DNA of 62,981 nt, filler included, from Folioceros fuciformis (taxonomy: Eukaryota), in NCBI GenBank assembly GCA_049999805.1. It is 21 parts of 21 records of this genome, joined end to end, with 100 filler letters (N's around TTAATTAATTAA, not from the genome) between each part and the next. Parts side by side here need not be neighbours in the genome. Positions count along the whole stretch, not along the records: positions 31,918 to 35,458 come from JBNGIO010004681.1; 20 more parts are not named here. One strand, given 5' to 3'. A program made the position numbers and the translations under genes. This document shows, one piece after another, positions 19,938 to 37,065 of this stretch. A model generated the notes under the pieces. It was not told the origin of the DNA. It made no database searches and worked only from the letters and a program-made list of their open reading frames with translations. Every line of letters starts with the position of its first letter. Within the stretch, counting starts at the first letter, position 1.

Positions 19938-21324
19938 CTTCTTCGAGCCCTACCATCTCATCATCGTGCAGGACGGCGATCCGTCCAAGGTGATCAAGGT
20001 GCCCGAGGGCTTCGACTACGAGCTTTACAACCGGAATGACATCAACCGGATCCTGGGCCCCAAGGCATCCTGCATCTCTTTCAAGGACAGCGCCTGTCGC
20101 TGCTTCGGGTACATGGTCTCAAGGAAGAAGTACATTTACACCATCGACGACGACTGTTTTGTGAGTTTGAGCTGCGGCGGTTTCGTTTCCGGGGGCTGGG
20201 ATTTTTGTGGGCAAGCTGGTTGAGTGGGTGGTTTGGCTGACTGGGGTGGGGTGTGGTGGATCTGGCGGGTGCCGCTCAGGTGGCCAAGGATCCTTCCGGG
20301 AAGGACATCAACGCTCTGGAGCAGCACATCAAGAACCTGCTCTCCCCCTCCACCCCCTACTTCTTCAACACTCTGTACGATCCGTACAGAGAAGGTACCG
20401 ACTTCGTTCGCGGCTACCCCTTTAGCCTCCGGGAAGGCACGCCCACCGCCGTCTCCCACGGCCTGTGGCTCAACATCCCGGACTACGACGCTCCCACCCA
20501 GCTGGTGAAGCCGGCGGAACGCAACAAGAGGTTTTTCACTCGGGCCCAGCGCTCGGCATGCTTGTCGTCCTGTTTTGGGGCTCTAGGTTCTGCGCTGGGT
20601 CCCAACTGGGTGCTGTGCTGGGACTGGGGCCTGGGTGTTCTCGACCTGCGTCTGATGTCCCCTTGCCGTGCCTGAACTGGACCCGGCAGGTATGTGGATG
20701 CCGTGCTCACCATCCCCAAGGGCACCCTGTTCCCCATGTGCGGGATGAACCTGGCCTTCAACCGAGATCTCATCGGCCCGGCCATGTACTTCGGGCTCAT
20801 GGGCGATGGGCAGCCTATTGGGCGATACGACGACATGTGGGCTGGATGGTGCATGAAGGTGGGCTTCTCTCCATGCCCTGTCTGTGGAGGCAGGTATTGA
20901 TGGGGCCAGCCTTCACTTTTCCCTATCTTTGTAGTGACCCGGTTGCCCTCCTCCCCGGCTGTTTCAGGTCATCTGCGACCATCTGGGGATCGGGGTGAAG
21001 ACGGGCCTGCCATACATCTGGCACAGCAAGGCCAGCAATGCCTTTGTGAACCTCCAAAAGGAGTACAAGGGCATTTTCTGGCAGGAGGAGCTCATCCCCT
21101 TCTTCCAGCAAGTGCAGCTGACCAAGGAAGCTGTCACTGTGGAGCAATGCTACCTCGAGCTCTCCAAGGCCGTCAAGGACAAGCTCAGCAGCGTCGACCC
21201 CTACTTCACCAAGCTGTCGGATGCCATGGTGACATGGATCGAGTCCTGGAAGCTTCTCAACTCCCCGGACAGCAACGCCCTCTTGTCGAACGGGCCTTCC
21301 AAGACCGGCAGCAGAAACAAGTAG
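19938..21324 (+). CDS. RGP: UDP-arabinopyranose mutase / reversibly glycosylated polypeptide (GT75), 5'-truncated by gap
   Basis: Exons <19938-20160, 20280-20530, 20690-20858, 20968-21324 with GT-AG introns that keep the frame. Motifs [55 protein letters not shown]. Confidence 0.96.
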
Positions 21325-22456: not shown

Positions 22457-23250
22457 TCAACTGGCCTGATTGAGAGGATTGTCTGGAGACTTTTTCCACA
22501 GCTTCCACACCATGTCCTTATACTGTGTGTGAGTTAACCCTGGCTTCTCTTCCTTCAGCTTCGGCAGTTCAGCATCCTCAAAAGCCTGCACAGTTTTGCC
22601 CTCTCATCAGCACCGAACACGCTATACCATTCTTTTTCCGAGAAGCTGGAGGTGCGTGCTGGCAAAGAAAAAACTGCAGATCCTACCTTGAACGAAGCCT
22701 TGAGCCGTCTTTCAGGATGCCGATCGGGAGGAAGCTCAACGCCAGACACAGCGCTGATTTGAGCCAAGGCAGTGTCCAGATCCCTAGCATCCAAAAGAGT
22801 ATCATCCCTATTGGTATTCTCCACAGCAATTATCCGCTCGTACTCCTCCGAATCCGCAGTCCGAGCCTCCTTCCGCTTGGAAACCACAGCCTGAGCCGCC
22901 AGCTGCTGCCGCTCTTCCTCCTTCTGCTGCGCAAGCTGCGCTGCTGTCACCTTAGGCACCGGCGCCGAAACCCTGCCAGCTCTCTTATCCACCGCCTTGC
23001 CATACTTCTCCAGCTCCTTGGCCTCCTGCTCCGCAAGCTTCTTGGCCTCCGCCCTCTTGGCTGCCGCCTCAGCCCGCCTCTCTGCCTCCTCCTCCTTCTT
23101 CTTAACCGACTTCAACTTGGGCCCCTCGGCCTCCTGCCAGTACTGCTCCTCCTTGCGCCTGGCCTCGGAGGCCTTCTTTTCCGACTCTGCCGTCGCCTTC
23201 CGCACTCTGGCCTCCTCCGCCTTGCTATTCACTCCCATCTTCTTCGGCAT
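22457..23250 (-). CDS. CCDC124: Coiled-coil domain-containing protein 124 / Lso2-Oxs1 homologue, 230 aa
   Basis: Exon 1 23250-22687 (MPKKMGVNSKAEEAR...DRHPERRLKASFK), GT-AG intron 22686-22586, exon 2 22585-22457 (AFEDAELPKLKEEKPGLTHTQYKDMVWKLWKKSPDNPLNQAS*). Confidence 0.93.
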
Positions 23251-24571
23251 CTTGGTCCTCCCTTGAGCAAACGGACAGAACTCGTCTAACCTCCGCCCGA
23301 TTCCCCAATCCTCCTCATCAATTTCCCACGCACACCGATGTTGCTGCAGGCGAAATCCGGCGACAGGCAGCAAGCTCGGGCACAAATCATCCTACGGAAG
23401 TCACACGAAGAGCAGGCCCTGTCGGCAGGAGCATTTCCGCAGAAGCCTGTAGGAGGTTCCAGGCATGCAAAACTCACGGAAATGCAACAATCCAGCGGGA
23501 CACGCGCAGAAACAGAATGGCCCCGACACGCCCGGATCACAACAAGCTAAACACCTGGAAGGACAAGTCGAATCAGGCTCTGCCAGGGCCGAGCCTCATC
23601 AGGCTCGATGAGCGCTCATCCACGGCGCCACAGGTCGGTATGTACATATATCTGAAGAGAATACGGCACATTACCCATATTAACACAGTAAGTACTACAT
23701 ATTCACTCTAAACGTGAAGACGCACACAAGTGAATTACTCGAAACATAGCCTGAAGCATTTGCTTCTGCGTCCGCCATACCCGTCCTAGTCTGCCGAGCT
23801 TCATCGACCATGCATACTCTTCCGCCATATCCCTGAAGCACTCATTCCCAGACAGACACAACTGCAAGCGACTCAGATCCAGTCCGTCCATGTGCTCGCT
23901 CGTCTTTGATGAATTCAACCTTGGAATCGCGGCAATATATTACCTGCCACCACAATCTCCTGAGAGCGGCAGCAACCTTGCTTCCGAGAGCCATCTCAAG
24001 ACGGACCAGAGCATTGAGATCTCGTTGTGTAGATTCTTGGAACGACATCGGCCAGAAGGTGCAACAACAAGGAACTGGAACGGGGCAACGACACGATGTG
24101 GGGTGCGCGATACCGATAGAGTCCGAACAAAGTGTGGATCTCGCATACAACCGACCTCAGCGATGAGGTCCCAGGGGTAATACGCACATCGCTTGCAAGC
24201 GTCATGGCCGAAGCTCAAACAATCAAATTAATGGAATAAAGTTGGTACAAACCAATGCGATCCACTGCGTCCAACACGCAAATCGGTAAACGGGACTCAC
24301 CGATTGAGCGAATCACACAGAGCGGACATGACCAACTCATGAAAGAGCCTAGACAGCGTACCGTAACGAGGCTCTAGGACTCCAGACGAGCATGCTGGAG
24401 TCCTGTTTCTCTACTCTAACGTTGGTCCATCTAACCTAGAGACAACAACTCCAGTAGACCGAGTCTAACACTACAGCTGCGAACCACATATGCTACCATA
24501 CCTTCCAACAATCCTGAGTGCATCAACCTTACCCTTCGTGTGCAGTCACGCGAGAAGCCTAGGATGGAATA

Positions 24572-25645: not shown

Positions 25646-26255
25646 GGACTTAGCTCAGGAAACTGTCCTTGGTATCCCGGGAAGGGGTCGTCGAGGGAGA
25701 CGCTGGAACGTTGGATTGTACAAGAGAGGGAAGCGAGTTGAGGTGGATAACAGGTTCATGGACGGTCTATAGAAGATGTTTGGCCAGATCCAGAGCTAGA
25801 TCGAGCTTTTCGAGGGGGACGCATTACTTTCGGATGGATGACTGCAGCAAGCAAGCAACCATGTCGTGTGGGAAACTGGAAGACGTGAGGGAAGAGCTGA
25901 CGCTAGAGCCTTCTTGTTGTAGGCCAGGCAAGGTTGCTCACCACACGGCCTTGGGCTTGTTGGGTGGTTCGCACCACCAGGGCGTCATACCTTTTTTTCT
26001 AACTTTTCCTCCATTTTCTATCTTTTCATGAAGCCCCGGCAGCACGAATTCCAGAATTTTCGTTTCAGACGAACGGTATGGGGGCACGGACAGCAAAAAA
26101 CCAGGAGAGGACCGGCTCCGTTGGCAATGTGACAATCGCGACGATTGGAAAGCGCTCGGGCTTAGTGTCACTGATTTTTGGTCATCGGGCTCGTGGCAGC
26201 TGCGAGGCTCTCTGCCACGCCTGTGGTGTTTGTTGCTCCACAGCCGAATTGCACC

Positions 26256-28527
26256 ATGGCGGAGCAGCTGCAGCAACAGCGGGTGAAGAAGACCAGTATT
26301 CCTGTTTACGGCACCTTCCTCAGCAGCGCCTTCGCCGCTTGCGTGGCTGAGGTGAGTTGCCGCTTCTGTGCCGGAGTATCTAGGTTGCGGATTTCTGGTG
26401 TGGATTCTGCGAGTTTGTTGACTGGTGGCCTGAATTTTGTGAGTACGCGGCGCGCTCTTGCTGCGGGGGAGGATTGTAGCTGGTTTAGCTGGTGGCGGGA
26501 GATCAGTGGAGTGATCGTGTTGCGCGGTAGCTGTCAGGCCTGGTTCAGTGTTTGCGATTCGAATTTCTGTCTGTGCGGCGACTGTTTTAGTGCGCATGAC
26601 GCTGATCAGCTGGCATGAGCCTCCCGAAGGACTCTGAAGATCTTTTCTCTTTGAATCTGGTTGTTTTGTGGCACATGCTCACTGAGTGCATGCTGTCAGC
26701 GTCGGCGCTCCTGCCAATTGAAGTGTCGTTGAGTCTGGTTGGTCGTTCCATGGTCTGAATCGGGCAACCCTAGGCTGTGGGAGAAGTAGCACGAGGGAAG
26801 TCGAGGAGCCTGACAGTGTCGCAGCCGCTGTTGGAGCAGTTTGTAGTTTGGCATTCAGCATGGTTTCTGACTTTGCAGTTGCGTTACAGGTTTGCACCAT
26901 CCCCATAGATACAGCCAAGGTGAGGTTGCAGCTTCAGGGCAAGTCGAGTGACCCTTCCGTGAAAGCAAAATACCATGGGATGCTTGGTACTATGCGTACT
27001 GTGGTGGCTGACGAGGGAGCGACAGCTCTTTGGAAAGGCATCGTGCCAGGTCTTCATCGCCAAATTCTCTTCGGCGGCCTACGTATTGGTCTCTACGATC
27101 CTGTAAGTGTGTATCACCAGCTTTAATGCTTGCCCTGCACTTGCGAAACCCTGATCATTTCCCTCAATTCTGCACGTGACTGCCGCCGATTGCTAGCTTT
27201 GGCCATGTTTGGCGGCTGATAATTGTTCCTTTTGCCGGAGCTGCAGGTGAAGCAGCTTTATGTCGGTAAGGACCATGTTGGCGATGTTCCACTCTTGAAG
27301 AAGATAGCTGCAGCTTTGACTACAGGTTGGACATGCTTTCCCTGTCCTTGTGTCTTTAGTTAAAGCTGCATTTTGAGGTGCTCGTCCAGACGACCTCATT
27401 CTCCTCTGGCGTGTCTTCTCATTTGGGCTACCGTAAGGCAGTATGTAATGAGGTATTTGGTGTTACTGGAACCAGGGGCACTTGCTATCACTGTTGCGAA
27501 CCCAACGGATCTGGTGAAGGTTCGACTGCAGGCTCAAGGAAGAGATCCTGGTGTCCCATTACGGTATTCTGGCGCCATGAACGCTTACTCCACGATTTAC
27601 AGAACGGTGTGCTTTCTTCTGGGCCCTCTCTTGCGTTGCTCTGGAATGACATCTTCATCAGCTATTTTGTCCTACCTTTGTTTTGTATTGCTGTTGGCAG
27701 GAAGGTGTGACGGCCTTGTGGACTGGCCTAGGTCCAAATGTGGCGAGGAATGCCATAATCAACGCTGCTGAGTTGGCTAGCTACGATCAAGTGAAACAGG
27801 TATGATGAATAAGACCAGGAAATTGGCAAACAAGGAATGCCGTTGTTGGTTTAGGCGGAGGTACGAATAATCTGGGTGCTTGGATGCGGCAGACTTTACT
27901 TAAGGCTGGATTCAAAGACAATGTAGTGACCCACATCTTATCTGGTCTTGGAGCCGGGTTCTTTGCTGTGTGCATCGGCTCTCCTGTGGATGTGGTAAGC
28001 TCCAAGACTGGCTAAGGGCTTGACGAGTTCATCGTGTTTCTTGTCGTTCTACTCTCAATGTGTGTGTGCGTGTGTGTGTGTGCGTGTGTGTGTGTGTGTG
28101 TTGTTTTTGCAGGTGAAGTCAAGGATGATGGGCAACTCGTCAGCATACAACAGCACCCTTGACTGCTTCGTACAGACGTTGAAACACGATGTAAGACATT
28201 TCTCCGGATCAGCTCGGCTTACTCCTGACGTTGCAGCCTATGAGCAATGCTCTAAGTCCGTGCGAAAAAGCTACTTAGCCTTGTTGTGTGGCTTGATTGT
28301 GTCTCCTGTAGGGGCCCACTGCCTTCTACAAGGGGTTCATTCCCAACTTCGCGAGACTGGGAACGTGGAACGTTATTATGTTCCTGACTCTGGAGCAGGT
28401 ATCTGTCTACGTCATCGTCCTCCGTTTGCCGTGAATTGATGTGTGTGGCGTCGGAAATTGATGTCACCCTCTGACGTCCTGTCTGCATGTTACGCAGACA
28501 AAGAAGCTATTTATACGGGAGGAGTGA
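26256..28527 (+). CDS. UCP1: Mitochondrial uncoupling protein (plant UCP1/UCP2 type, SLC25 carrier), 304 aa, 9 exons
   Basis: Exons 26256-26351, 26890-27102, 27247-27325, 27476-27606, 27701-27799, 27893-27994, 28113-28190, 28312-28398, 28498-28527 (915 nt, all GT-AG, frame kept). Three carrier signatures: [27 protein letters not shown]1 versus UCP2 orthology is not resolved. Confidence 0.95.
28059..28100. repeat. (TG)n microsatellite in UCP intron 6
   Basis: About 21 dinucleotide units with two CG interruptions. Confidence 0.95.
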
Positions 28528-31817: not shown

Positions 31818-31917
31818 NNNNNNNNNNNNNNNNNNNNNNNNNNNNNNNNNNNNNNNNNNNNTTAATTAATTAANNNNNNNNNNNNNNNNNNNNNNNNNNN
31901 NNNNNNNNNNNNNNNNN

Positions 31918-34900
31918 GCTGAATAGCAGGTCCTTCGTCAATTTCCCTTGCAGCGCCGCGACGTCCACCCCCAATTGTGGCCCTGGTCGCAGGCGTGAAA
32001 AGTGGCGGAACAAAGATGGATCAGCTGCAGCAACGAGTGCGACCCCTTCCTGGATGGCTGCCAGTTGTCGATCGGCAGGAGCCCATGCAGCTGCCTTCAA
32101 TAGGGCAAACACGCCCATAATCTCAGGGTAACAGGCCTTCATGTCCCCCTTGAAGGCCTTCTGGAGTACCAAGGATCCGAGCGCATCCTCCCAAGTTCGG
32201 TGCAGACCATACCGTTGGCTGCCCATCGCGTGCGCGATTGTGGCCGTGGTCATTGGCTTAGACACCTGCACGCCGGTCGCCAACACCATGTATAGCATGA
32301 ACCCAAAGAACCGTGCATTGTGCACCGCAAATGTCAACACGAATCCCATACATTGGCATACATTGCCGTGAACTTGGCCGTGGTTTTGAGGGCACTCACA
32401 ACTGTTTCGCTCAAGCACGTGGTATGACTCCCTTGCCTAATGTGGTACAGCAACCTGCTTGGGCCATGGCTGTCTCTTGCATCGAACACGCAGTTCAAGA
32501 ACTCGGGGTTCAGCCAAAACTGTCGCCACACCTCGCATATGCACCTCCTGGATGAACCTCCTGTGTCTACTGTATCTGCTTCCACCAACCCTCCTCCCCC
32601 TTGGCCAGTGATGTACACAACCTTCAGCTCCGGGAACACATCCATGCGCTCCTCATGGCGTCTGAAATGGTCGAACAGTGCCCCACAAAACCCTAAACCC
32701 TAAACCCTTGGCTTAGCCGCCATCCCCACCACAAACCCTGGTTGTTCATGGCGGCACCCACACCGCCGCCAAGTGCACCTCACCTTCAGCGCAGGGGACC
32801 ATTGTGCTCTTCTGCGCTGATGAGCCGCAATTGGCTGCAATGTGTGGTTGGTAAGAGAATATCTACGCATCGCACCGTCTGCCGCATCACACGCCTCCTG
32901 CGCAACATGGAGGTTCATTTCCTCAAGCTCCCTATATGGTAGTGCGACCTCCTGCGCCCTCTCCTCTCGCATGCGGAGCCACTCACGGTGGCGGGTTTGC
33001 AACCGGAGCAGATCAAACTGGTCCACCGTCTCCTGCAAATTATTTGCAGCCCAGGCATCCCATAGGTCTTCATGCGTTGCCGCTGCCAGGTCCATACAGG
33101 GTTCCACTTTGTGTAGTAGTCTAATGACCGTAGCAACTGGCGACGTCCGCTCCGATATAAACCCCTGGATGGTGGCAACGTCATAAAGTTCGAACCCCGG
33201 TATGGTTACTAGCTGGCGGACGAAGGCCCTTCCCGCGCTGTCCCCGGCTCCTGTCCCTCTGTCCAGAATGGTCAGTAGCTCGGCCAACACAACGGCGTGC
33301 TCTAGCTTTGCTTCATCCCCACCCTTCCTCTCCCGCACCTCGTCCACCATATCAAAAAACACTTTGGCCTCTACCTGTAGAGGCTTCGGCTTCTTCCGGG
33401 GCACTACGTAGCATTCTGCCTCCTTTGCTTGCTGTAGATAGCGAGTCGCCGCCTCCCAAGTCACCACCAGTGCCGCGTACGCCTCAGCAGCAGTTGCGAT
33501 TGCAAGAAGGTCCATTGCATCCGCAGCACCTGATTGACTCGGTCACCCTAAACCCGGTGCCTGAGGGGAGCTGCCTCGTTGGGGCTGCCATCGGTCCACA
33601 ATGTAACAATCGTCGTCTCCATAGCCGGAGTGCCCCCCATGACTGGGGATGACACTGCAGACCCCCCACCACGCGGGGTGTGGCTGGCCAAGCCACGCTC
33701 CATGGACCCTGTACGCTCAGAGTCGTCTTGCAAGCAATCACCACCCTCTGTGTTTGCCATACCCGCCACCAATCCAGCAACATCGACAACCCCTGCCTTT
33801 GCTCAATACGCTCTGACCATGTGTTCCGTCATCTGCACGATTGGATCCCATACATACAGCAGCATTGTCTGCAGCTGGTGAGAGCTGTGCGACACTGTGC
33901 TGCCTGGTGGGAAGATTAGCGGGTCGTCGGTGAGCAATGCTGTTGGCGAGCTTTGAGCGAATACCCGCTGGAATCGCTTGACGAAGCACCCGAGCACCAG
34001 GCTACTCCTATCCAGGTGAAAGAGACGGGCGACAGCATCCACTATCTCCGCCGCCACAGCGAGGCTCAAAGTCTAACCCATCGTACGTTGCGCCTACAGG
34101 CATCGACGACGGCACATGTAGCTCCACCACGATGCAGTCTAAGGATGTTATTTTCCTGGCTTGCAGGGGCACACCCCCATTAGGCGGCTCAATCGAGAAT
34201 TCTGGGAAGTCGAGGTTCAGAGGAACCATTATCTTCAGCTTCTTGATGTGCACGCGCACAAGCGGGCTTCCTACAACCATCGCTCGTTGCCTCCTCCTGG
34301 GTGATGGGGTGCCAATGATGTGATTTCGTCGTAGCGTCATGGGTATGTTCCCAGCCGCTGCTCTCATGGTGTCCTCCGGTGGTGGACGCGGTGAAATCTG
34401 TGGAGTTTGTGCGGGCGAGCGGGGCACTGCCCGTCCTACCACCATGGATGCACTCGCACTAGGCGGTAGGCGTCCTCGCGTTGTCGGCCAACTCCGGCAT
34501 ATTGTGCTCACACTCGGCACTTGGAGCACTGCAGGTCCATCAGGAGTGTAGCAGACCGTGCTACGAGCAGATGGTGCCGGGATTGAGGGTTCTGCTGCCG
34601 GTGTGGTAAGCTGTGGCGTTCGGGCTGCATGACGTTGGCGATTGGTCGGCGGGTCATCCTGGAACACATTGTCCTCATCTTCCTCCCCCGTTCTCCAATC
34701 AGCAAGGATGGAGTCACCATTGTCGACGACAACATTCAGACGCCGGCGGTGCTCCGGCCTCTCTTCCACGGACATATTGATGTCGATAGCAGCTGCAATT
34801 GTCCTCCCCGGGTGCCCCGTCCCACAGTGAACACGGTGTGTGCGCAGATACTGCGGAACATGGATATGGAGTGCGTTCAATTGCTGGGCGGGAGGATCTG

Positions 34901-34973
34901 AGCATGCCCCACCCTCTCTCCATACGCCCATCGCGTACGGGGAGTAGGGGTTCAATACCTGGGATATCTGCAT
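31918..34973 (-). pseudogene. Divergent HECT-type E3 ubiquitin ligase-like gene (disrupted or spliced), C-lobe lost in gap
   Basis: Chain of minus-strand ORFs ending in LKVVYITGQ...VDTGGSSRRCICEVWRQF, ARFFGFMLYMVLATGVQVSKPM and DMKACYPEIMGVFALL, matching by eye the three HECT N-lobe blocks in correct order. Confidence 0.55.
32688..32708. repeat. Interstitial plant-type telomeric repeat (AAACCCT)3
   Basis: Three perfect units, equal to TTTAGGG repeats on the minus strand. Confidence 0.9.
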
Positions 34974-35558
34974 GTGCCTACCAGCCGTGATACAGAATAT
35001 GGGGTTGCGCAGCCCTTAATACTGCCATGGAAAAGTAGGCGCTAAACACAGATGTTCAAATCCCCTCCCTCATCAACTGCAGATGCCAGCCATTTTGCCG
35101 TAATACTTCACACTCAAAGTTGCCTGTCACACCAAGCTCGAGGTCAGTGCCAAATGATGACCTGTAGATGCTAGCATATAATATTACTCCCACCCATAAG
35201 GGAATGTCTCACAATCCCGCCTCAAAAATGCTGACTAGTCGTGTGCCTCAATAGCGTTTATGGTCCCCAGGTGCACATAAGCGTACAGCCCATCGCCTGC
35301 CCACTGCAATTGGCCTCCCCTGCACTGCCACCACCTTCCATTCCCTGCAGCGGCGGCGGCTGTGGTACCCACTCACACCAACCTAAACCCCATGAACCCC
35401 CCCTCCCCCGTTCGGTCTTTACCACCACATTCCCTCCTCCTCCCACATGTGATGGACCNNNNNNNNNNNNNNNNNNNNNNNNNNNNNNNNNNNNNNNNNN
35501 NNTTAATTAATTAANNNNNNNNNNNNNNNNNNNNNNNNNNNNNNNNNNNNNNNNNNNN

Positions 35559-37065
35559 CGTTTTGACGTCCATTTGATGCACTAGGAAACCATGCTGAAC
35601 AGCGTAACATAATAAAATTTGCATGGAAGTAGGTTTTACAACAGGGCTAAATGTCTCATGATAGTTGAAACCCTGTACCTACGTATAGCCTCGAGCCACA
35701 AGGCGGGCCTTGTAGCGTGAAACTGATCCATGTGGATTAAGCTTTAGCTTAAAACCCCATTTACTGGTGATTGCTTTCCGACATGCTGGCAACTTGACAA
35801 GCTTCCATGTATCATTGTCAATTAAAGACTTGTACTCATTGTCAATCGCTTCCTGCCAAGCCTGTTTTTGAGGAGAATTAAGTGCCTCCTTATACGTGAG
35901 TGGTGTGTCAGGAGGATCCATGATTGTCATGGCTACATGGTGAGCCATATGGGCTAAGTTGATATGAATAGTATCGGATGCTGTGGACTGTGACTCGGAA
36001 CGAGAGACAAACGAGTCACCTGGTTCATATGGAGGGGCAAGCCAGGCAAATCAGGGTTTGTGTGAACGCAAAGACCTACGAAGAGGTAAGTTCTCACCTG
36101 GTGCTGGTACTGGTACTAAAGGCTGAACTGACTGTTCAGAGAGGTAAGTCCCATTTGGGGCAGACTCCTAATGAGGCGAACTTGGCCGATCAGGCAGCCT
36201 CAGTACCTCAAGCGGGATTTGCTGCTGAGGTAATGATTCAGCTAAGTCTGAAAATTCATAGGTAAAAAATGAGTCATCTTGATCAAATGTATATGGGTCA
36301 TCTTCATATGCTGAGACTTTAGGTTTGTCTTGTACAGTCTGGTCAGAGAAAAACTCGGAGGGTGTATGCCCATATACTGAAGCTGTAGGAATTGGAGCAT
36401 GAGAAGTGTTGGTGAGATAATGTGACTTCATAATGTAAGTCTCGTTAAAACTCACACTACGGGCAATAGACAGTTCCCTAGTGAGAGGGTTGAATAACTT
36501 GTAGCCTTTGATAGTGTCTGAGTATCCAACAAATACATGCTTAGATGCCCTGTTGTCCATTTTATACCATCGGTCTGCTGGGACATAGGCATATGCCATA
36601 GCCCCAAATGTTCGAAGATGGCTAATCCATGGCTTATTACCAGTCCAACGCTCATAAGGAGTTGTATCATAAAGGGGCTTGAGAGGTAGGTGATTGGCAA
36701 CGTAATTGACAGAGTCAACTGCTTCAGCCCAGTAGCCCCCTGGTAAGACCAACTAAAGTTAAAGTAGCCCGAGTTCGTTCCTGCAGAGTACGATTGTACC
36801 TTTTTGCAAAGGGATTCTGTGCAGGATGATAAGGCACAGTTACTTGATGAATAATGCCTTTCTGCTTGCAAAACTCTGTAAATCCTACTCTGAGGTATTC
36901 CTTAGCGTTGTCTGTACGTCGTCTCTTGACTGTTTTGCTTGTTTGTGTCTCAACCATGGCAACGAATTCCTGAAACTTGGCGAATACTTGATGCCGACCT
37001 TGGAGGAAAAACAATGTATAGAAGTGGCTCCACTCATCAAGGAAAGAGAGGAAGTATACTGCTCC
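35559..37065 (-). mobile_element. Ty1/copia integrase-RT fragment
   Basis: TDNAKEY, YWAEAV, HVFVGY, KARLVARGY; several stops and frameshifts. Confidence 0.92.

Follow-up and report, generated by a model that had tools for sequence, protein, structure and literature searches.

Positions 31918 to 35458 of the window, which is the whole 62,981-nucleotide stretch of Folioceros fuciformis DNA analysed here, very probably hold a decayed form of the second gene in a DNA transposon of the IS3EU/GingerRoot type. About 1,050 codons in three exons make up this gene, whose product is a HECT E3 ligase with an extended N-terminal part. The window copy itself is a dead pseudogene that is unable to make a protein. 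A DNA search of its own genome identified the stretch as a complete contig of 3,541 bp (G000:C4681), and the gaps on its flanks are spacers (N44+TTAATTAATTAA+N44) that join small contigs. Because 31918-35458 is the whole contig, the sequence past the gap is not the continuation of the gene, and tblastn found no more of the ligase gene or of the element elsewhere in the window. The original prediction had described successive GC-rich minus-strand ORFs that lacked retroelement motifs and ended in three HECT-like peptides. These ORFs and all three peptides were found within 31918-35458, where a search for retroelement ORFs returned none, and the succession of ORFs is now explained by two introns and a set of lesions. 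The features are as follows.

31818..31917, no strand: assembly spacer; the adjoining contig is unrelated.
31918..32316, minus strand: exon 3, first 133 codons, the putative remaining N-lobe; truncated by the contig end.
32317..32399, minus strand: intron 2; a 4-bp deletion took out its acceptor.
32400..32687, minus strand: exon 2, the putative start of the divergent HECT N-lobe; conserved in three lineages.
32688..32783, minus strand: intron 1, placed by an 11-copy alignment.
32784..34775, minus strand: exon 1, which spans 665 codons when read in the paralogue frame and is disrupted in the window copy; its ATG is common to three lineages.
32784..33515, minus strand: conserved block preceding the HECT domain (the helical segment of the original prediction), without a family.
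33836..34256, minus strand: conserved beta-rich block that may be a divergent ubiquitin-like (beta-grasp) domain; limits approximate.
34776..35458, minus strand: probably non-coding sequence internal to the element, lying before the start of the ligase gene; contains the earlier proposed start at 34973.

Three lineages of the family share the start (window 34775) and both intron positions, with exons of 665, about 100, and about 284 codons. An upstream part of about 750 amino acids had been proposed from a start at 34973, and this is corrected to 665 codons before intron 1. The sequence upstream of the ATG is 82-90% identical to other copies, holds many stops and between-copy frame differences, and aligns poorly with other lineages. 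Exon 1 of the window copy carries a 2-bp deletion near 34059, a 1-bp deletion near 33618, a TGA stop at 33805-33803, and a TAG stop created by a TTTAGGG patch at 33555-33546. Both splice acceptors are gone, and in the case of intron 1, TTTAGGG repeats (32707-32688) stand in place of the acceptor and the first exon 2 codons; the unreplaced form of this site was seen in the DNA runs. With two frameshifts, two stops, and both acceptors lost, the window copy cannot make a protein, a state that was missed when the copy was first treated as a gene. An intact gene copy was not seen among the family contigs, where many copies are truncated by contig ends. The two telomere-type TTTAGGG patches replace gene sequence, another copy has a third patch as a loose end at 33964, and the patches resemble telomere-repeat filler inserted where breaks were repaired.

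Other contigs joined in the window hold unrelated features. These are an exon of a reversibly glycosylated polypeptide (RGP) gene at 20241-20672 (PF03214), a CCDC124/Oxs1 match at 22558-23391 (PF06244), and a mitochondrial carrier gene at 26175-28440 (PF00153). Fragments of copia-type and other LTR retrotransposons lie at 35559-37065 and in many other contigs (PF07727, PF25597). The RGP gene identifies the host as a plant, and the range described in PMC6839031 suggests a non-seed plant.

The HECT identity of the gene is assigned through its paralogues because in these (C2187 and others) exon 3, the last exon of the window copy, continues in frame into a C-lobe with the Cys. The paralogues carrying the C-lobe are about 89% identical to the window copy, whose own contig lacks the C-lobe. 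Two paralogue ORFs matched PF00632 at 40.8 and 45.3 bits (cut-off 23.9; E 2.7e-10 and 1.2e-11, respectively), and a genome profile search placed PF00632 above cut-off on seven family contigs. All 26 PDB matches of the family profile were HECT ligases, and a wider profile gave 77 PDB matches, of which the 60 best were all HECT. The prediction of a divergent HECT gene is thus borne out by the paralogues. The motif LPTSRTC aligns to LPTSHTC of E6AP, with its Cys on the catalytic Cys of E6AP. Of 12 C-lobes examined, 11 have this Cys and one copy has Ser instead; in 14 outside clade sequences the Cys is invariant. It had been predicted to lie beyond the gap, which holds for the missing part of the gene and fails for the window sequence past the gap. 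Four positions from the C-terminus, an aromatic residue is conserved as well, and the aromatic residue near the HECT C-terminus has a role in catalysis. The HECT structural model was weak (pLDDT 49.3), and its top Foldseek matches were HECT C-lobes (best E 0.024).

The Pfam HECT search proposed for the window ORFs matched none of the six, and the window exons alone gave no significant HECT match. When profiled, the two HECT exons of the window had no HECT match in PDB, and hhalign of the same profiles against conventional HECTs returned probabilities of 0.5 and 30.5, nothing significant. Exon 2 weakly resembled the start of a conventional HECT (39% across 33 aa, E 0.002 with nine sequences in the set). 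The putative N-lobe fits HECT in position, length, and motif order, with profile matches below significance, and position and motif order are the grounds for its assignment in the window. In known HECTs, the N-lobe binds E2.

The long N-terminal part did not resemble a known family. No Pfam or PDB sequence match was found for the beta-rich block (33836..34256), and 32784..33515 had no Pfam match above cut-off and a best Atlas score of 0.77. Atlas searches with two N-terminal ORFs reached 0.77 and 0.83 at best, which are leads only. Homologues among longer proteins were not found, which is weak evidence, and a search of a phage collection gave no match. A paralogue model of the beta-rich block was of low confidence (pLDDT 43.8). 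Folds of the ubiquitin-like, PB1, RA, or FERM kind made up most of the top 50 VIA matches of this model (best Z 5.1, rmsd 2.8 over 76 residues), and Foldseek also returned mostly ubiquitin-like folds (best E 0.27). As a lead only, the modelled block may be a ubiquitin-like (beta-grasp) domain.

The gene belongs to a repeat family. At the DNA level the stretch had 20 matches in its own genome, the best of them 82-92% identical, and protein searches of the genome revealed further lineages at about 60% and 40% identity. Parts of the ligase gene occur on 27 of the 54 contig stretches examined, and the copy-number check suggested earlier showed a multicopy gene. In two DNA runs of one sample, 247 and 246 contigs aligned to the stretch, and C>T and G>A were the commonest changes. 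Private changes in the window's subfamily are likewise mostly C>T or G>A, as expected for copies decaying after insertion. The pN/pS ratio inside this subfamily is mostly about 0.3 (range 0.19-0.94). Between lineages, pN is 0.19-0.24 and pS 0.67-0.79 in the HECT exons, and pN is lower than pS in every block of the N-terminal part (0.25 vs 0.82 in codons 200-340). Codons 490-600 keep 47-54% protein identity between lineages. Saturated synonymous sites together with a conserved protein indicate a formerly working gene, which by these sequence comparisons functioned in element lineages under purifying selection and is not a recent host fragment. In one distant ligase copy, a 2-kb tandem array starts directly behind the stop codon (G000:C5423:13965-15988).

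The ligase gene is followed by an rva_4 DDE transposase gene, whose integrase-like core matches PF24764 (E 9.5e-9). Seventeen ligase-bearing contigs extend for at least 1.4 kb past the gene. In eight of them, transposase parts were found 71-1,507 bp downstream on the same strand, and one of the eight was first found via its transposase. The other nine copies, including all six of the most distant subfamily, have no downstream transposase, and 22 contigs carry the transposase without ligase parts. The spacer between the two genes is 85-91% identical within a subfamily. No transposase was detected in the 1.5-kb flanks of nine host UPL stretches. An ungapped comparison of the transposase core with the GingerRoot core printed in PMC6839031, counted by eye, gave 41 identical residues out of 87.

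Element ends were recognized in related subfamilies. The element C6406:26524-34600 has IS3EU-type ends and a duplication matching 6/6, and it contains a 660-bp piece, oriented opposite to the element's transposase, that shares 87% identity with the N-terminal region of a distant ligase copy. In C6373:399151-400240, a C-lobe piece lies between TAYGG ends with a duplication matching 5/6; this end pair was chosen by eye and falls under the repeat threshold of the end-pair scan. Thus, TAYGG...CCATA ends and 6-bp duplications enclose distant-subfamily ligase pieces in two elements. The complete element C4167:4273-9426 also has IS3EU-type ends and a 6-bp duplication matching 5/6, and no ligase parts were found in it outside an internal gap. 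An element of 392 bp with such ends and a duplication occurs in C5494. The end-pair scan recovered nine pairs, five of them of the TATGG type, compared with 0-1 in five shuffles, and genome-wide the end motif had 161 matches vs 0 for the reversed control. The 161 pattern matches in G000 represent a short-element family with TATGGCATACCAAA ends, some members of which are nested inside large elements.

For the window's own subfamily, ends were not found, the copies being truncated by contig ends or interrupted by retroelement insertions. C5494:68146 is a candidate left end of this subfamily. C6165:243575 and C5494:70545 were rejected as ends, as homology continues in other copies at both, and the stretch common to C5334 and C6220 proved to be a copia element. 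Sequence in C1685, chained to the window's subfamily through overlaps, suggests that its element may exceed 13 kb. A 328-aa low-complexity ORF lies there far upstream of the ligase gene (G000:C1685:3-986, minus strand; also in C3143 and C5438), and Pfam gave no match to it. One IS3EU subfamily has another, broken ORF upstream of its transposase (G000:C6406:30395-31659; also in C3121 and C478; 71-82% identical), again without a Pfam match. The flank check proposed earlier thus yielded a transposase and the ends of related elements, and no ends for the window's own subfamily. Taken together, the linkage and the enclosed pieces support the assignment of the gene to an IS3EU/GingerRoot element with a DD35E transposase, apart from the host UPL set, and of the two options first put forward, transposon cargo is the one upheld.

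According to the available text of PMC10045372 and PMC12730594, elements of the IS3EU superfamily end in TA...TA or TAYGG...CCRTA with 6-bp duplications, and fungal members carry TET/JBP and alpha-kinase genes. The Folioceros elements share the TAYGG...CCRTA ends, the 6-bp duplications, and standing accessory genes beside the transposase, whereas the accessory gene here is a HECT ligase. With GingerRoot, as presented in the accessible part of PMC6839031, they have in common a homologous DDE core, TA...TA ends, 6-bp duplications, multi-kb size, and a plant host. The word "HECT" does not occur in the texts of PMC10045372 and PMC12730594 with one supplement, nor do "HECT" and "ubiquitin" in the text of PMC6839031 with one supplement. 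Among openly searchable paper listings and these three texts, outside Repbase entries and subscription journals, no published HECT-bearing transposon, plants included, was found. The protein is similar to HECT E3 ligases (E6AP, HECTD3, HUWE1, plant UPL) in its C-lobe sequence, the position of the catalytic Cys, and the C-terminal placement of the HECT domain. In contrast to them, it has an N-lobe beyond profile detection and an N-terminal part without a family, and it is multicopy and transposon-borne.

Among 1.84 billion representatives, a profile search picked out 15 matches. Ten outside relatives were looked up and had no informative name, the nearest being metagenome proteins, and all five tested for PF00632 carry the domain. 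A metagenome scan for the outside clade found one 2.3-kb locus. On the clade profile, clade members scored 119-211 (119 and 145 belong to two proteins outside the profile) and host UPL stretches at most 27 bits, in agreement with the early impression that the protein is unlike canonical plant UPL ligases. In the tree one host UPL falls outside the clade; support for this is weak (78/91) and the branch is long.

These results bear on two explanations that deny the gene a standing role in the transposon. One is that GingerRoot elements passively captured a fragment of a host UPL gene. Selaginella lepidophylla offers a precedent, where gene fragments of 84-1,654 bp, 79-98% identical to their parents, occur in 22 of 77 intact elements (PMC6839031, available text), and the Folioceros gene does have introns. 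However, the elements of that paper hold recent host gene fragments only, and the passenger here is an entire gene of about 3.4 kb, old and under selection, for which the matches include no parent. Purifying selection between lineages and the low host UPL scores on the clade profile point the same way, so that capture is largely refuted and very improbable. The least credible explanation is a lineage-specific HECT family of the host, whose closeness to transposases would be a coincidence of repeat-rich DNA. Many copies without a nearby transposase and the fragmented assembly would suit it, but order and strand are fixed in eight copies with a conserved spacer, rva_4 matches are scarce (at least 31 in 87 Mb), and ligase pieces lie inside elements with duplications.

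In general HECT chemistry, ubiquitin passes from an E2 to the ligase Cys and then to a substrate. The intact protein would have taken ubiquitin from an E2 onto its own Cys and passed it to a substrate picked by the N-terminal part. By analogy, it most likely worked as an E3 ligase that served the element in trans, since many derivatives have lost the ligase gene. It is unlikely that the HECT fold was kept as a scaffold or decoy of the element by a ligase no longer working, and we give this low credence. The N-lobe without a significant HECT match, Arg where E6AP has His before Thr-Cys, and Ser for Cys in one copy would fit such a loss, but the Cys is retained in nearly all C-lobes despite saturated synonymous sites and throughout the outside sequences, and the C-terminal aromatic residue is conserved. 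For an active ligase, a host silencing or chromatin factor is the leading candidate target, at somewhat below an even chance. The element's own transposase would be a weaker candidate, and some other target is less probable still. A broader proposal, which we hold to be doubtful as a whole, is that the HECT ligase is an ancient standing IS3EU/GingerRoot gene of single origin in plant and animal elements, an E3 disarming host silencing, whose plant form has a ubiquitin-like domain and belongs to a new HECT clade.

The copy in the window is without function, and dead transposon genes of this kind can inflate HECT counts in such genomes. The finding extends the list of transposon-kept enzymes to a HECT ligase in a plant. 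It suggests that these transposons once used their own ubiquitin ligase, and ubiquitylation is a possible route for elements to act on their host.
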